NCBI RefSeq assembly: GCF_000011325.1
Contig: NC_003450.3
Span: 1,800,001 to 1,832,000 of the forward strand
DNA: 32,000 nucleotides
From: Corynebacterium glutamicum ATCC 13032
GTDB taxonomy: Bacteria > Actinomycetota > Actinomycetes > Mycobacteriales > Mycobacteriaceae
Direction of reading: 5' to 3'
Part shown: piece by piece, positions 552 through 16,385 of the stretch
Layout of the letters: the number at the start of each line of letters is the position of its first letter
Position numbering within the stretch: position 1 is the stretch's first letter
Program-made: the position numbers and the translations under genes
Notes under the pieces: model-generated
What the model saw: the letters and a program-made list of their open reading frames with translations, nothing else
Told to the model about the DNA's origin: nothing
The model's database searches: none

Positions 552-576
552 ACAACGACAGCAAAGCTGCGTTCGG
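552..576 (+). repeat. conserved 25-nt hairpin element, copy 1 (ACAACGACAGCAAAGCTGCGTTCGG)
   Basis: Identical 25-mer also at 3528 and 12123. Lies 53 nt upstream of ATG 630. Confidence 0.9.
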
Positions 577-629
577 AAGAACTCATGAACAAAGATCTGG
601 CCACCTCAATCCCTTAAAAGGAGATCATC

Positions 630-761
630 ATGAACTGCCCAAACTGCTCCGAAGACATGACTGTCGTTGATGTTGTTGGTCGTGGTGCCAGCCGAGGTCT
701 GTTGCTTATTGACCCCACCACTCACGTCTGCAGCGACTGCGGATATATCGAAGTACTGTAA
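630..761 (+). CDS. 43-aa zinc-ribbon-like micro-protein (CPNC...CSDC)
   Basis: AAAGGAG Shine-Dalgarno sequence lies 7 nt upstream of the ATG. Two CxxC pairs. Stop TAA 759-761, followed by terminator 807-851. Below the ORF-track size cutoff. Confidence 0.6.
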   Translation: MNCPNCSEDMTVVDVVGRGASRGLLLIDPTTHVCSDCGYIEVL

Positions 762-806
762 ATCAGCACACTCTCACATACCTTTACACCACCCCATACC
801 CTTTAA

Positions 807-851
807 CCCCTGCACTGCTCATCCACAAGCACTGTGCAGGGGTTGTGTTTT
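807..851 (+). terminator. intrinsic terminator
   Basis: CCCCTGCAC (807-815) pairs with GTGCAGGGG (834-842), followed by TTGTGTTTT. Confidence 0.8.
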
Positions 852-872
852 CTAACAAGAAAAGAGACCACC

Positions 873-1310
873 ATGTTCACAGCTTTTAAAAGCAATCCTA
901 CGACCATTAAAAAGCTGGTTTCTGAGCTCATTAATGGCGACGATGCAGCGCTCAACGAACTAGAGCGACACGTCACTAATGAATCAGTCCGTGCTCGCGA
1001 ACTCCCTAATGTCCAGTACAAAGCCACTGCGGGGCGCAACTTCGCCATATCCAAGCTGGTCCAAAATTTGCGTCGCATCAACAAGGCACAAAACAATCCA
1101 CGTGGTGTGCCCACTCATGCCACCGTGATTCTGCTTAAGGAAGACGGCAGCTACGACGGTGAAGAACAGTGGCGCATTCCAGAAAAGGCGATCACTCCGT
1201 TCGACATGCTACGTTCGCCTGACTTCAACCACAACAGGCTGAAGAACCGGCCGCTCATGGTCGAGTCCCAATACCCCTGGGGCGTCCCCGGACTCATTAA
1301 AATGAACTGA
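873..1310 (+). CDS. hypothetical protein, EEQWRIPE/QYPWG family, paralog 1
   Basis: Internal ATG chosen because of the upstream CAAGAAAAGAG RBS context, which is shared with the next gene. Clear homology to 1494..2099. Confidence 0.75.
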   Translation: MFTAFKSNPTTIKKLVSELINGDDAALNELERHVTNESVRARELPNVQYKATAGRNFAISKLVQNLRRINKAQNNPRGVPTHATVILLKEDGSYDGEEQWRIPEKAITPFDMLRSPDFNHNRLKNRPLMVESQYPWGVPGLIKMN

Positions 1311-1493
1311 TCAATCCCTGACACAGCCATTGATTCCGAGGATATGAAAGACCCCCGGACTACCGCGAAATTAACACCGGTGTCGGTACCGGCAACTGCA
1401 TCATTGTCGTTCCTGAACAAGCGCCGTGGTTTAAGCCAGCCATCATCAAACAGGCTTAAAAATACTCAATCGTCCCATTCAAGAAAAGAGCAC

Positions 1494-2099
1494 ATGACCA
1501 TGTACAACGCCGCAAAGACCCTTGTTCCCCAGATTGTTGCTTTCGATGACACAGCAATCATCGCACTCGACCAAGCCGCGGAAGATGAATTCCGCAAGGC
1601 TAACTACCCCGAGGTTAAAGCCAACCAAGAAGCTGCCTATATCCTGGCGGAAGCTGCCCAAAACATTCAACGCATTGCAACAGCTCGTGCCACAGGCGAT
1701 GTCCCAGCGACTGCTCGCGTGGTGCGCATTAAGGGCTCTGAGAAATACTACACCGAGGAGCAGTGGCGCATTCCAGAGAACGCCTACTACCCTCGCAGTA
1801 TGGCTGAATCTCCTGATGCTCACCTTGATGACCGTGGCATCTATATCATCCCAGCTCAATATCCTTGGGGATACGAGGAAATCATTAACCTACCGGCACG
1901 CGCTACCTCTACACCTGCTGTTGCTCCTCGCACTGAGGCTGCTCCAGCTACAGTATCTGATGCTGAGGTCCAGAGCCTGCTTGAGTACTTGCGTACTAAT
2001 GCTTTCGTAAGTCGTCACGACGGCGACACCACGAAGGCCGACATCTTCAACAAGCACGCGGATACTGTCAACAAGCTTGCAGCACTACGTGCACCCTAA
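1494..2099 (+). CDS. hypothetical protein, EEQWRIPE/QYPWG family, paralog 2
   Basis: Same CAAGAAAAGAG RBS context. Shares the EEQWRIPE(K/N)A and QYPWG blocks with 873..1310. Terminator follows. Confidence 0.75.
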   Translation: MTMYNAAKTLVPQIVAFDDTAIIALDQAAEDEFRKANYPEVKANQEAAYILAEAAQNIQRIATARATGDVPATARVVRIKGSEKYYTEEQWRIPENAYYPRSMAESPDAHLDDRGIYIIPAQYPWGYEEIINLPARATSTPAVAPRTEAAPATVSDAEVQSLLEYLRTNAFVSRHDGDTTKADIFNKHADTVNKLAALRAP

Positions 2100-2116
2100 A
2101 CCCACACCGCATAACC

Positions 2117-2160
2117 CCCCTGCATAGGCTGATGTCCAGCCTGTGCGGGGGTTATTTTTT
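2117..2160 (+). terminator. intrinsic terminator
   Basis: 15-bp stem, 2117-2131 paired with 2137-2151 (includes two G:U pairs), followed by TTATTTTTT. Confidence 0.8.
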
Positions 2161-14520: not shown

Positions 14521-14560
14521 TTGCCACTAAACGAGTCACTACACAATTACATCGCTCATT

Positions 14561-14618
14561 GTTACTTAATTACCCTTTAATAGTCTTTTACAAGGCTGTT
14601 AAAGGGTAATTTTTTATT
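14561..14618 (+). terminator. intrinsic terminator inside a 58-bp exact repeat (copy A)
   Basis: The 58-mer is identical to 16210-16267. 12-bp stem ATTACCCTTTAA/TTAAAGGGTAAT followed by a T-run. Confidence 0.9.
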
Positions 14619-14886
14619 AGTTTGCTTAAAGCCTATTACATGACAATTACAGCACAATTGAAAAGTCACTTAAGCGCACGCTAAAAGCGAATTGTAGAGG
14701 GTTATTTTTTTCGCAATTAAAAGCCTTTTGCGACACAAATAGGACAACAAAACAAAGATGCATTAACTCTAAAAGAACAAAATTAATCAATCAGAAAAAC
14801 ATATTGAATACTTATAAATTTCTGACATACTCATTAATGAGATATTCGAAGTCTTTATCAAAATGATTAACAAAAGGAGTATGTTT

Positions 14887-15654
14887 ATGTCGCTAAAAAC
14901 TCGCCGAATATTCGGCGCACTTGCTGTTTCGCTATCAATCTCTTTCTCAGCCATTGCTACACCTGCAGCATCCGCACAAGAACTAGTGGTGAGCACATCA
15001 GCAGTAAACGAATTTGGTGTAGTTACCAGTGACATCACGGCTGAGCAAATTCTTCAGGCGCAAGATCTAATCGCTGAGATGAAACAGTCAGAGGACATAT
15101 ATGAGTATTTCGGTGCCTTGTCTGACGTTGAACAGAGATCCATCATTGCAGCTGTAAAGGAAAATCCATATCTCATTGAGAACGAATCACCCCGTATGAG
15201 AGTCCAAAGTGAAACACCCGACGAGGAAACACCTGATAAGAAAAAGCCGAGCAAAACCTACAAGCTCTATATGAGCATTCTCGAAATGATGTCATGTATC
15301 AATCTTGTTGATGTTCCGTCATGTGCCCAAGCCCTTAAAGCGGCAAATATAGCTGAACGCGAGGCCAAGGCCCGTTACCCCGATTCGGTCACTAATGGTA
15401 AAGGCGATGCCCTTCGTCATTGTGCATGGAGCGCTCTCATGACTATTCGAATCGGAAAAGATGCAGCCGAAAGAATTGGTAACGCTCATGAAACCGTTGT
15501 GAGAGGTGAACCCGAAGAAAGAGAAATGGATCTCATCAATAACGCGCTGGGTAGAGACATCGGCGAAAGATTCATCATCAATGGCGATGAAACGGGTGCG
15601 CTCAGTACTTGTGTATCCATGGCTAATATCGGGCTACTTCATACTCTGTTGTAA
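14887..15654 (+). CDS. secreted protein (255 aa) with GDALRHCAWSA...AHE motif
   Basis: AAAGGAG lies 7 nt upstream of ATG 14887. Signal peptide ends in ATPAASA. No family I can name with confidence. Confidence 0.75.
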   Translation: MSLKTRRIFGALAVSLSISFSAIATPAASAQELVVSTSAVNEFGVVTSDITAEQILQAQDLIAEMKQSEDIYEYFGALSDVEQRSIIAAVKENPYLIENESPRMRVQSETPDEETPDKKKPSKTYKLYMSILEMMSCINLVDVPSCAQALKAANIAEREAKARYPDSVTNGKGDALRHCAWSALMTIRIGKDAAERIGNAHETVVRGEPEEREMDLINNALGRDIGERFIINGDETGALSTCVSMANIGLLHTLL

Positions 15655-15672
15655 ACAAAGGAAGTTTCTATC

Positions 15673-16131
15673 ATGAAAATCAAGAAATTCAGCATCACAG
15701 CGCTAGCCTCAGTTCTAATGCTCACGGGTTGCGCGACCAATCACAGCTCACCTCTGTACAGTTATCTGAATGCGTCAACATCAACCACTGTTGAACAAGT
15801 ACGTCTCAGCGATCTTTACGGTGAGCAGTGGACCGAGTTCGCTCTTGTCTGCCCCTACACCACAAAAGACGAGGTAAAAGAAGAGCTTGGTATAAAAATA
15901 AACACCTACCTCACCGATTCGACCGATGACAGTAGTAACGATATTGTGCTCAGGGATAAAGACGGTTCATATGATTGGATCTATTTCAACAGATTCGACA
16001 TTGTGTACCTCTGCAACGGCTCAGCGGAAAATCTAAAAATCTACCCCATTGATTCAGTTCTAGAATTTGAGCATAGAGACGACTACGGTACCTGGAAACT
16101 GAGCGCTATCACAGAGCCGGGTAATCAATAA
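15673..16131 (+). CDS. lipoprotein (152 aa), paralog of 17803..18222
   Basis: AAGGAAG RBS and lipobox LTGC. Shares the block LYGEQWTEFALVCPYTTKDEV with the other lipoprotein. Confidence 0.8.
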   Translation: MKIKKFSITALASVLMLTGCATNHSSPLYSYLNASTSTTVEQVRLSDLYGEQWTEFALVCPYTTKDEVKEELGIKINTYLTDSTDDSSNDIVLRDKDGSYDWIYFNRFDIVYLCNGSAENLKIYPIDSVLEFEHRDDYGTWKLSAITEPGNQ

Positions 16132-16209
16132 TAACGCGGACACTTAAGTACCTTTTATCGGTCGATTAAGTGTCTACTGTTTATCCGCTACCAAACCACG
16201 CCGCTAATC

Positions 16210-16267
16210 GTTACTTAATTACCCTTTAATAGTCTTTTACAAGGCTGTTAAAGGGTAATTTTTTATT
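16210..16267 (+). terminator. intrinsic terminator inside a 58-bp exact repeat (copy B)
   Basis: Identical to 14561-14618. Confidence 0.9.
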
Positions 16268-16359
16268 CGTTTGTTTTTGGGACCATTAAATGTCAATTAC
16301 ATGTCGAGTAAGTGACACTTACAGCGCAATTGAATAGTCACTTAAACGCACGCTAAAAG

Positions 16360-16385
16360 ACAAATGACAGCGAAGCTGCATTCGG
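16360..16385 (+). repeat. conserved hairpin element, copy 6 (ACAAATGACAGCGAAGCTGCATTCGG)
   Basis: Carries paired C to T and G to A changes on opposite stem arms. Lies 65 nt upstream of ATG 16451. Confidence 0.85.

Follow-up and report, generated by a model that had tools for sequence, protein, structure and literature searches.

The stoperators of mycobacteriophage L5 and Cluster A are reportedly 13-bp asymmetric sites without dyad symmetry, which lie inside operons and are bound by the repressor gp71; in Streptomyces phage phiC31, the promoters and the 17-bp CIR are said to be separable, and repressor and transcription starts are reportedly known from experiments. Lambdoid morons are said to have each its own, unrelated sigma-70 promoter and to be typically expressed from the prophage. 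In T4-type phages, PeSL (promoter-early stem-loop) cassettes combine a strong sigma-70-like promoter with an effective terminator stem-loop (Arbiol et al. 2010, PMC2839356; Comeau et al. 2014, PMC4122927), and the Cluster O mycobacteriophages carry the repeat TGTTCGGNNNCCGAACA, a 17-bp perfect 7-3-7 palindrome of which one third of the sites lie inside genes (PMC4351075).

The window analysed here, a stretch of 32,000 nt of Corynebacterium glutamicum ATCC 13032, lies inside prophage CGP3, whose silencing has been attributed to CgpS, a protein that binds AT-rich DNA. A sequence-only reading of this window had described six copies of a 25-nt palindrome, all on the + strand and 53-92 nt upstream of start codons. 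Their coordinates and sequences proved correct, including the identity of the 25-mers of c1, c2 and c4, the loop-only change of c5 (GAA) and the degenerate copy at 4018-4041, and public gene calls agree with the six start codons. The location in CGP3, the extension of the element to an invariant YGA, its role at mosaic junctions and three copies to the left of the window were not part of that description. As the best explanation, to which we give about an even chance, we propose that the element is an induction-specific promoter/operator that heads autonomous promoter-gene-terminator units, is helped by a putative CGP3 factor and doubles as a recombination junction.

Nine copies are present in 43.4 kb of strain 13032, which is about a quarter of CGP3 (187 kb): six in the window and three to its left, labelled c7, c8 and c9 (Table 1). 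Every one of the nine is on the + strand, in an intergenic gap ahead of a + strand gene (the cg1909 region, cg1912, cg1913, cg1914, cg1919, cg1920, ppp2, cg1934 and cg1938). All copies in five related prophage variants are also intergenic and co-oriented with the genes, and when these and the left copies are included the distance to the start codon is 46-116 nt. Searches were run with a covariance model and a position-weight matrix, and neither revealed a further copy, on either strand, in the 43.4 kb or in the relatives. By chance, 0.00 copies of the 25-mer would be expected when 3 mismatches are tolerated, and 0.16 of a relaxed core, against the six found in the window.

Table 1. Element copies and neighbouring terminators, in window coordinates (negative values lie to the left of the window; bits are covariance-model scores).
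Feature	Coordinates	Strand	Details
Left copy	-2889..-2865	+	Degenerate; cg1909 region
Left copy	-1001..-977	+	Degenerate; cg1912
Left copy	-452..-428	+	Intact, loop ACA; heads cg1913
Intrinsic terminator of cg1913	387..420	+	Hairpin 387-411; upstream of c1; homologous terminator before c7
Copy c1	545..590	+	25-mer 552-576, TGA 586-588; heads cg1914 (630-762, 43-aa zinc-ribbon protein); 59.5 bits
Terminator hairpin after cg1918	3456..3499	+	Upstream of c2
Copy c2	3521..3566	+	25-mer 3528-3552; heads cg1919 (3630-3896, putative membrane protein); 56.6 bits
Copy c3	4010..4055	+	Degenerate, core 4017/4018-4041; heads cg1920 (4134-4601), with cg1921-cg1924 downstream; 38 bits
Bidirectional terminator after cg1931	11966..12013	.	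Upstream of c4; "stem 1" in published terminator table
Copy c4	12116..12161	+	25-mer 12123-12147; heads cg1932/ppp2 (12215-12694, dual-specificity phosphatase); 63.6 bits
ppp2 terminator	12712..12743	+	Upstream of c5
Copy c5	12793..12838	+	25-mer 12800-12824, loop GAA; heads cg1934 (12881-13609); 59.3 bits
Paralogous segment after gntR2	14553..14687	+	Right end 14686/14687 is a mosaic breakpoint
Segment with cg1937 terminator	16202..16359	+	Terminator 16217-16260; ends exactly at c6 5' edge
Copy c6	16354..16399	+	26-mer 16360-16385, ACAAATGACAGCGAAGCTGCATTCGG; compensatory variant AATG...CATT; heads cg1938 (16451-16639); 56.9 bits

The conserved unit extends over about 46 nt and is composed of an A-rich tract, which adjoins the 25-mer on its 5' side and precedes most copies, the 25-mer core, and a G-A with C or T before it (Y-G-A), located 9-12 nt past the 25-mer and invariant in all 24 distinct variants collected. 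The core is an imperfect palindrome, AACG-(a)-CAGC / NNN / GCTG-CGTT followed by CGG-R, in which the stems are conserved and the central 3 nt vary (AAA, GAA, ACA, GCA); in c3 the bulged A is absent and one stem pair is an A.C mismatch. The shared hairpin fold noticed earlier is present in the intact copies, is modest (-5.7 kcal/mol as DNA, with z of about -2 to -3) and is not kept in the degenerate ones. When copies are compared with their flanks, similarity is limited to about 30-45 nt; the copies are therefore not leftovers of larger duplications. A TANNNT hexamer is not conserved at any fixed distance from the element, and the -10 hexamers at 17-nt spacing that had been claimed for three copies form a full sigma-70-type pair, with ACGACA as -35, at c4 only. 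The element is neither a sigma-A promoter nor a known RNA family (Rfam gives no match) nor a credible minus-strand terminator.

An intrinsic terminator lies directly before seven of the nine copies and, as had been noted, before five of the six in the window, c3 being the only window copy without one; at c7 just 9 nt separate the end of the terminator T-tract from the element. Since the units are preceded by intrinsic terminators, each of them needs its own promoter, and the element is the sole conserved sequence in the terminator-to-gene gaps. Published whole-transcript RNA-seq describes cg1909, cg1912, cg1914, cg1932 and cg1934 as monocistronic. The GC content of the element-bearing gaps is ordinary (0.41-0.56), whereas it is 0.30-0.36 in gaps of the CgpS-silenced type. 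The segments at 14553-14687 and 16202-16359 in Table 1 are paralogues that differ in what follows them: after the segment behind gntR2, unrelated AT-rich DNA replaces the element.

Published 5'-end mapping in uninduced cells shows a start site at none of the copies, and the same data contain sigma-A start sites for the neighbours cg1916, cg1917, cg1925, cg1930, cg1931 and cg1935. Upon CgpS counter-silencing, the genes grouped as having intact copies (cg1913, cg1914, cg1919, cg1920, cg1932, cg1934 and cg1938) rise by 4.5-6.1 (log2), the sigma-A-promoter neighbours by 1.7-3.7, and cg1909 and cg1912, which lie behind two degenerate copies, by 2.0-2.6, on a copy-number background of about 1.5-2 given by the flanking host genes; the high fold-changes owe partly to low basal expression. 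The induction of cg1920, despite its imperfect copy c3, could be accounted for by read-through from cg1919. When induction was triggered by iron/SOS, in an independent data set, the list of genes going up contains, from the interval cg1898 to cg1955, only cg1914-15, cg1918, cg1919-23, cg1927, cg1932, cg1934 and cg1936-37, that is, element-headed units and AT-rich targets of the CgpS type. None of the sigma-A neighbours is in this list, and the intact-copy genes cg1913 and cg1938 are also absent from it. These observations support a cis-regulatory role for the element, at the head of autonomous units whose expression goes with induction. Among the readings proposed from the sequence, an operator overlapping a promoter comes closest to the explanation favoured here, though not in the form proposed: its sigma-70 form does not extend beyond c4. 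The promoter activity is something that we infer, as the mapped starts include none at a copy or close to one.

The element is also a mosaic junction between CGP3-related prophages. Homology with the relatives L241, L243 and L244 begins at 12120, the 5' edge of c4, that with L241 and L243 at 12795, the 5' edge of c5, and that with L241 at 16355, the 5' edge of c6. At the position of c5, the relatives show two unrelated types of upstream flank. One homology block ends at 14686, where L241 has an element copy and a gene for a 182-aa protein, with a c6-type copy on each side of this gene. The element coincides with block boundaries in four or more independent instances, the junctions lying 5' of the core in some and 3' of it in others, at no single fixed phosphodiester, and a resolvase gene (9761-10375) flanks the variable segment in all variants.

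Each unit runs from the element through a 40-90 nt leader with a ribosome-binding site to the gene and its intrinsic terminator. According to the promoter/operator explanation, the element would act as promoter and the palindrome as a built-in candidate protein-binding site. This promoter would be silent in the lysogen and turned on by CGP3 induction, probably being read with the help of a factor that the prophage supplies, be it an activator, a polymerase of its own or a sigma-like protein, and not by sigma-A alone; such a factor might recognise either a hairpin or the duplex palindrome. No gene for an RNA polymerase, a sigma factor or a plausible regulator occurs in the 43 kb examined, and the published CGP3 gene list likewise contains none except cg2040, a regulator of the HTH_3 family. 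The likeliest start would be the invariant YGA with its G as +1; the 25-mer would then span -35 to -11, and the A-tract would take the position of an UP element. An alternative start would be the GGR that closes the core. Because one and the same sequence heads unrelated genes, the element would have a second role as crossover point for the gain, loss and reordering of cassettes among CGP3-like prophages.

Other readings of the same data have to be weighed. A prophage repressor might bind the palindrome as a stoperator-type operator and block initiation or elongation into each unit in the lysogen, the true promoter elements being weak, located elsewhere or replaced by read-through. The many intergenic copies in a single orientation relative to transcription recall the L5 stoperators, fixed stems with a variable centre are expected of a dimer site with an uncontacted spacer, the headed genes are silent in the lysogen and rise with the prophage, and the end of an antisense RNA (1,800,863 to 1,800,490, minus strand) at the 3' edge of c8 could represent a roadblock. 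However, c8 is degenerate and this case is the only one of its kind, another mapped antisense RNA (1,806,050 to 1,805,384) crosses c3, and a block of elongation would be redundant in units insulated by upstream terminators. Moreover, a promoter would still be required and no other is visible, the gaps are not AT-rich as CgpS-bound DNA is, and no repressor gene was identified in the 43 kb examined. We consider this operator unlikely as a separate explanation; it overlaps with a promoter containing a built-in operator and does not exclude it. It is unlikely, too, that the hairpin and its flanks function at the RNA level, for instance in processing, in antitermination or as a stem-loop that stabilises the 5' end, in a transcript that begins upstream of the element or passes the preceding terminators. 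Stem pairing is found in 95% of cells across the 24 variants, with one compensatory change (C-G to U-A), one shift of the bulge by which pairing is preserved, and two G.U pairs that are valid solely on the sense (+) strand; pairing is also possible between the invariant Y-G-A and the U-C-G, likewise invariant, in the core (G-C/G.U, C-G, U-A), and the orientation is always sense, with the start codon 46-116 nt away. The compensatory change, on the other hand, is an event of a single lineage and gives thin support to a hairpin, the second stem shows no covariation, the A.C mismatch of c3 is a wobble on the opposite strand only, the fold is weak, and the leader structures 3' of the element are unrelated from copy to copy. 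Conserved stems with a varied loop fit a duplex palindrome as well as an RNA or single-stranded DNA hairpin. Between terminator and element, a separate upstream promoter would have no room at c7 and little at c2. The hairpin reading suggested from the sequence is weakly supported.

Site-specific recombination, in which the element would be a small counterpart of attC or res sites, the cassettes would be moved by a recombinase such as cg1929, a serine recombinase encoded nearby, and regulation would be a secondary effect, is quite improbable. The mosaic boundaries, the L241 gene enclosed by two copies and the resolvase gene adjoining the variable segment speak for it, and the AAC...GTT hairpin base with one extrahelical base resembles folded attC sites. 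Nevertheless attC sites are 57-141 nt long with 7-bp R and L boxes, tyrosine-recombinase cores have spacers of 6-8 bp, and resolvase/invertase sites have 12-bp half-sites and a 2-bp centre; arms of 8-9 bp around a 3-nt centre are too short for any of these. Junctions on either side of the core are expected from homologous exchange within a short shared sequence, the cassettes have their own ribosome-binding sites and terminators, and the correlation with expression is left unexplained. Very improbable is a promoter of the N4 type, in which a supercoil-extruded hairpin is recognised on the template strand by a dedicated single-subunit polymerase. The stem with its 3-nt loop, the stable mini-hairpin motif GC-GAA-GC of several copies and the + strand matches to the determinants (-12A, -11R, -10G, -9C, -8G and +1C, 11 nt from the loop centre) recall it, but a + strand acting as template would give leftward antisense transcription. 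The template strand of the + genes carries a TTT or TTC loop, the AAA and ACA loops of most copies do not have the 5' G required by N4, the predicted base does not coincide with any mapped leftward start (the one antisense start near c9 is 31 nt off and has its own sigma-A -10 element), and no large polymerase gene is found in the examined sequence or the CGP3 annotation. The proposal of an insulating minus-strand terminator, for which a consensus scan places five copies in the weakest terminator-like class and the A-tract could supply the T-tract, is rejected as hardly probable at all. Its upper stem has 5 bp, the fold reaches just -5.9 kcal/mol, the T-tract is not continuous (CGTTGTCTTT), none of the copies faces a converging gene on the minus strand, the antisense RNA over c3 runs through the element, and the conserved TTCGGR and YGA and the tie to induction would remain unexplained.

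Compared with known systems, the element is like PeSL in being a short motif of one orientation, repeated in a region of small accessory genes without assigned function, in the proposed combination of a stem-loop with promoter function, and as an exchange point between unrelated sequences, where close phages differ by motif-bounded insertions, deletions and replacements. Unlike PeSL, it lacks sigma-70/sigma-A hexamers and has a weak hairpin without a sense-strand T-tract, termination in CGP3 being left to distinct structures further upstream. The two are unrelated in sequence, and the CGP3 element belongs to a silenced prophage in an actinobacterial host. The hairpin promoters of the phage N4 virion RNA polymerase (PMC4496689) also show a stem, a 3-nt loop and a GC-GAA-GC core before early genes, but in CGP3 the determinants are on the wrong strand, most loops do not have the required G and no giant polymerase is known. 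With the Cluster O repeat, the element shares a multi-copy actinophage palindrome whose three central nucleotides are A/T-rich (in Cluster O mostly AAA or TTT), the location of many copies between genes or at gene starts, and the hexamer GTTCGG, which in CGP3 is outside the palindrome; the Cluster O repeat has no meaningful orientation, whereas that of CGP3 is asymmetric, keeps to one orientation and occurs exclusively between genes.

The stoperators of L5 and Cluster A are similar in their many copies, in short intergenic gaps and in one orientation relative to transcription, in actinobacteriophages; the CGP3 element differs because it follows terminators and is about three times longer, and stoperators have a known repressor. 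In phiC31, many near-identical early promoters that are not sigma-70-like, together with highly conserved palindromic operators (CIR), lie between genes and often beside terminators, as the element does; the sequences are different, and starts that are mapped in phiC31 are inferred in CGP3. Finally, the units resemble lambdoid morons as autonomous promoter-gene-terminator units placed between other genes, but those of CGP3 have one non-sigma-A element in common and stay silent as long as the prophage is in the lysogen.

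The region read comprised the window together with 9.1 kb to its left (extension L008) and 2.3 kb to its right (extension L010), 43 kb in total; window position 1 corresponds to position 1,801,473 of BX927147.1, the chromosome of C. glutamicum ATCC 13032, which encodes a protein identical to that of 12215-12694. The window contains roughly cg1913 to cg1955, within the 187-kb prophage CGP3 at about 1.776-1.963 Mb, with locus tags confirmed by published tables. The sequence-only reading had described six + strand copies of a 25-nt palindrome, and these are all present (c1 to c6, heading cg1914, cg1919, cg1920, cg1932/ppp2, cg1934 and cg1938): three identical 25-mers, a loop variant at 12800, a variant at 16360 and a degenerate copy at 4017. 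By chance, essentially none would be expected. Three additional + strand copies, c7 to c9, are found in the left extension. The covariance-model search that the same reading had advised was carried out with a model built from 24 variants, with a position-weight-matrix scan run alongside, and it revealed no copy beyond these nine on either strand of the 43 kb of strain 13032. All 32 significant matches of the model, in strain 13032 and its relatives, are intergenic and on the gene strand.

Self-comparison restricts the copy-to-copy similarity to about 30-45 nt. Alignment of the copies indicates that the conserved unit exceeds the 25-mer, because it includes an A-rich tract on the 5' side and, 9-12 nt on the 3' side, an invariant GA preceded by C or T. 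An intrinsic terminator directly precedes seven of the nine copies and a start codon lies 46-116 nt downstream of every one of them; the units are self-contained, each carrying its own terminators and ribosome-binding sites. The coordinates of the features of the region are collected in the table. The 9-nt array listed there differs in copy number, by 36 nt, in another assembly (L009).

Copies of the element in the left extension and other features of the region
Feature	Position	Strand	Description
c7	left of window	+	intact, loop ACA, 50 nt upstream of cg1913 start codon
c8	left of window	+	degenerate, upstream of cg1912
c9	left of window	+	degenerate, 5' half perfect, 3' half diverged; upstream of 52-aa gene, cg1909 region
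9-nt array	414-526		tandem unit TGCACCTGT, ~10-12 copies, between cg1913 terminator and c1
cg1915	873-1310		paralogue of cg1916
cg1916	1495-2099		paralogue of cg1915
cg1945	20178-22391	minus	737-aa KAP-family P-loop NTPase, right of element cluster
ISCg14 (cg1950/51)	25748-26937	minus	IS3-family transposase in two frames, right of element cluster
Repeat-rich region	27,400-28,700		gene-free, 59% AT, packed with short repeat families

Homologues of cg1934 and ppp2 (81-92% identity) occur in assemblies of public sequencing runs, on contigs with CGP3-like segments whose gene order is unlike that of strain 13032 (L241-L257); on these contigs, too, all copies of the element are upstream of a gene and on the gene strand. 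Other ATCC 13032-type assemblies are identical and uninformative. Homology blocks with strain 13032 start at 12120, 12795 and 16355, where c4, c5 and c6 have their 5' edges; the upstream flanks of the orthologous copies are unrelated and the alignment begins at the A-tract. Within strain 13032, the stretches of 135-158 nt that follow gntR2 and cg1937 share homology as far as GCTAAAAG, beyond which c6 follows at one segment and unrelated AT-rich DNA at the other. A further block boundary lies at 14686, where contig L241 has a copy and a 182-aa gene, then a second c6-type copy and cg1938; the cassette of the 182-aa gene is thus placed between two copies, and the shared part is down to a 19-nt core. 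The element is a crossover point between modules: at 12120, 12795, 16355 and 14686 a repeated motif bounds insertions, deletions or replacements among close relatives, the property by which the PeSLs of T4-type phages are recognized. Since the junctions fall on both sides of the core, at no single fixed position, and no recombinase site known has the dimensions of the element, the economical explanation is homologous exchange inside the shared regulatory sequence. The terminators are also repeated as families (13637-13681, 14568-14611 and 16217-16260; 387-419 and L008 8638-8667), so that both ends of the cassettes are built from reused modules. In related prophage variants, minus-strand genes for a Fic-domain protein and for a protein of 385 aa (L241 14292-16576, L254 11694-13987) take the place of the KAP NTPase region of strain 13032, which makes this another replaced module.

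Megablast of 17 kb against phage and plasmid collections gave no match. Motif scans with four patterns in viral, metagenome and genome collections returned single chance matches and no Corynebacterium, the genome collection evidently lacking or masking the region, and the sequence upstream of a phosphatase homologue of 47% identity, from a high-GC organism, is devoid of the element. Tblastn against the phage collection gave nothing for cg1934 and only a distant shared domain for cg1915. The paralogues cg1915 and cg1916 share a C-terminal domain (EEQWRIPE...YPWG), which is also present in Mycobacterium phage WXIN and in Curtobacterium phages.

A sigma-70-type promoter at the copies, one of the proposals of the sequence-only reading, did not hold: c4 alone passed a consensus scan (ACGACA-17-TATATT), and neither an alignment of 9 copies nor one of 24 showed a conserved TANNNT or other -10 hexamer. 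Moreover, the genome-wide 5'-end map of Pfeifer-Sancar et al. 2013 (PMC3890552) reports sigma-A starts for cg1916, cg1917, cg1925, cg1930, cg1931 and cg1935, and its start-site tables (exponential or stressed cells) have no entry, on either strand, within the coordinates of the nine copies. The identity of the element as a sigma-A promoter is rejected because it has neither a conserved hexamer nor a mapped 5' end. The same study lists cg1909, cg1912, cg1914, cg1932 and cg1934 as monocistronic, with coverage too low for judging terminators (PMC3890552). These genes are separate, poorly expressed units in the lysogen. Promoters of ECF sigma factors have a -35 with AAC and a -10 with CGT, separated by a spacer of 16-17 nt. 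On inspection of the element, AAC (positions 3-5) and CGTT (19-22) are 13 nt apart, which is short of that spacer, and AAC-N16-TCGGR has the ECF-type spacing with an atypical -10. A published antisense start (genome 1,798,552, minus strand; L008 6200-6232; window ~-2920) is located 31 nt left of c9 and has its own -10, TACTGT; the reverse complement of the element lies at -57 to -32 of this antisense promoter. Of the other copies, those whose predicted position is inside the ranges searched showed no start of this kind.

Expression of the units on CGP3 induction was taken from Table S2 of Freiherr von Boeselager et al. 2018 (PMC6173762), where CGP3 was induced by CgpS counter-silencing (log2 changes, unsorted cells, n=3). 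Behind intact copies the values are 4.46 for cg1913, 6.12 for cg1914, 5.40 for cg1919, 5.44 for cg1932, 5.56 for cg1934 and 5.27 for cg1938, together with 4.51 for cg1920, which is so grouped though c3 is degenerate. Behind degenerate copies they are 2.03 (cg1909) and 2.59 (cg1912); neighbours with mapped sigma-A starts range from 1.75 to 3.69, and flanking host genes, which represent the copy-number background, from about 1.5 to 2. The AT-rich CgpS-type genes cg1918 and cg1936 reach 8.58 and 7.35. From the interval between cg1898 and cg1955, an independent iron/SOS-triggered set (Table S3) lists cg1914-15, cg1918, cg1919-23, cg1927, cg1932, cg1934 and cg1936-37 and no others, that is, element-headed units and CgpS-type targets and none of the sigma-A neighbours; cg1913 and cg1938 are missing from this list. 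The GC content of the gaps with an element is 0.41-0.56, against 0.30-0.36 for CgpS-type gaps. All this marks out the element-headed units as a distinct, co-regulated, induction-specific class, through a correlation that stems partly from low basal expression. It also shows, correlatively, that degenerate copies do not confer the induction behaviour.

We infer, with confidence about evenly balanced, that the element serves these units as promoter, contains a protein-binding site in the form of the palindrome and relies on a factor specified by CGP3. The promoter role is suggested by the separation of the units by terminators, by their occurrence as distinct transcripts, by the element being the sole conserved sequence of the gaps, by the lack of sigma-A features and by the way intact copies track induction. 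Transcription would start at the invariant pyrimidine-G-A, with the pyrimidine at -1 and G as +1, a position proposed because its distance is fixed and a pyrimidine/purine pair stands at -1/+1, as in start sites; the 25-mer would then span -35 to -11 and the A-tract would occupy the place of an UP element. The GGR that ends the core would be an alternative start.

A repressor operator or stoperator, which overlaps in part with the promoter reading, is unlikely, even if the copies are many, intergenic and of one orientation with respect to transcription, as in stoperator and operator arrays. A published antisense RNA opposite cg1912 (genome 1,800,863-1,800,490, minus strand; window -609 to -982) stops at the 3' border of c8, as expected of an operator acting as a roadblock, but this is a single case at a degenerate copy and may be a coincidence; no repressor gene for the element was identified in the 43 kb read. 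The palindrome might alternatively work as a hairpin in RNA. The 24 distinct variants keep 95% of the pair positions paired, with little or no change in the stems, TTCG or GA and with AAA, GAA, ACA or GCA as the loop; one compensatory pair (C-G to U-A) occurs in the c6 lineage, besides one pairing-preserving bulge shift and two G.U pairs. This variation is consistent with selection on pairing, the events being very few, and it is equally compatible with a palindrome bound by a dimer with an uncontacted spacer. A possible second stem, UCG/YGA, displays no covariation in these variants and the copies have no Rfam covariance-model match, even at E <= 1; we regard an RNA element as quite unlikely.

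The idea that a CGP3 specificity factor (a polymerase, a sigma-like protein or an activator) reads an extruded or bulged hairpin rather than hexamers is also quite doubtful; if true, the element would represent a promoter class new to Actinobacteria, CgpS silencing would have a second level of regulation beneath it, and the prophage could use the sequence to reshuffle gene cassettes that are ready for expression. Hairpin promoters of the N4 type share the determinants -12A, -11R, -10G, -9C, -8G and +1C with the + strand of the element, but this strand is the non-template for the genes served and could act as template only if transcription ran leftward. On the template strand of these genes the loop reads TTT or TTC, as against a purine-rich 3-nt loop in N4-type promoters, and the G required there is absent from most loops, so that this type is highly improbable. 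An intrinsic terminator for the minus strand, again put forward from sequence alone, is scarcely credible and was rejected: the bulged stem of 5+4 bp is weak (-5.9 kcal/mol), the T-tract is interrupted (tail CGTTGTCTTT), no minus-strand genes converge on the copies and a mapped antisense RNA runs through c3. As for a site-specific recombination site, block boundaries do lie at the copies and the 182-aa gene of L241 sits between two of them, but the variable position of the junctions and the dimensions of the element (8-9 bp arms, 3-nt centre), unsuitable for resolvase and tyrosine-recombinase architectures, make it very unlikely.

Other identities were considered and rejected. Integron attC sites are 57-141 nt long, with paired 7-bp R''/R' (RYYYAAC/GTTRRRY) and L''/L' boxes, an adjacent IntI and promoterless cassettes; the element has a core of 25 nt with 4-bp boxes, its GTTCGGR departs from GTTRRRY, and the units are equipped with their own terminators and ribosome-binding sites. 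The LexA SOS box is TCGAAC-N4-GTTCGA, and the half-sites of the element are in reverse order and 10 nt apart. The motif bound by the family of GntR2, GT-N-AC, does not match the element. The sole integrase in the CGP3 gene table, the split int2 (cg2070/cg2071), is at the end of the list and distant from the element region (PMC6173762). The element is also not the AlpA-binding alpS site of CGP3, since it has no TTAAnnG. This alpS consensus is present 54 times in the repeat-rich region of the table (41.5 per kb, versus about 2-4 per kb elsewhere), whose repeat units recur in 14,530-14,700 and 16,140-16,360; possibly CGP3 has here a second region of centromere-like or origin type.

Searches against Pfam, PHROGs and PDB sequences with about 35 proteins encoded nearby revealed no polymerase, sigma factor or obvious regulator besides GntR2, and neither a virion or single-subunit RNA polymerase nor the factor came to light in the 43 kb read (about a quarter of CGP3) or in the published CGP3 annotation. 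The 46-mer offers a direct handle, or bait, for finding the predicted factor.

CGP3 serves as the model of xenogeneic silencing of the Lsr2 type and of the spontaneous induction of prophages in a bacterium used in industry, and its expression has hitherto been explained through CgpS silencing of AT-rich sigma-A promoters. The element defines a second class of CGP3 units, neither AT-rich nor provided with a sigma-A promoter, that stay silent in the lysogen and respond strongly to induction; this class points to a putative phage-encoded factor downstream of CgpS. These observations are relevant to work on CGP3, Lsr2-type silencing and actinophage transcription, and the element might furnish C. 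glutamicum engineering with expression parts that are tightly shut and respond specifically to induction.

No description of the motif was found in the searchable literature, where its sequence strings gave only chance primer matches. The element is akin in kind to PeSLs, to the phiC31 early promoters with their CIR operators, to L5 stoperators and to the Cluster O 17-bp palindrome; its architecture differs from all of these, and the sequence shared is one chance hexamer at most. Like the PeSLs of T4-type phages, it is a crossover point between modules, and it illustrates the exchange of accessory genes in the form of cassettes ready for expression, here in an actinobacterial prophage. A PeSL, however, unites a strong early promoter of sigma-70-like type with a working terminator stem-loop, whereas the element has no sigma-70-like hexamers, its hairpin lacks a T-tract on the sense strand and the terminators stand apart from it, upstream.
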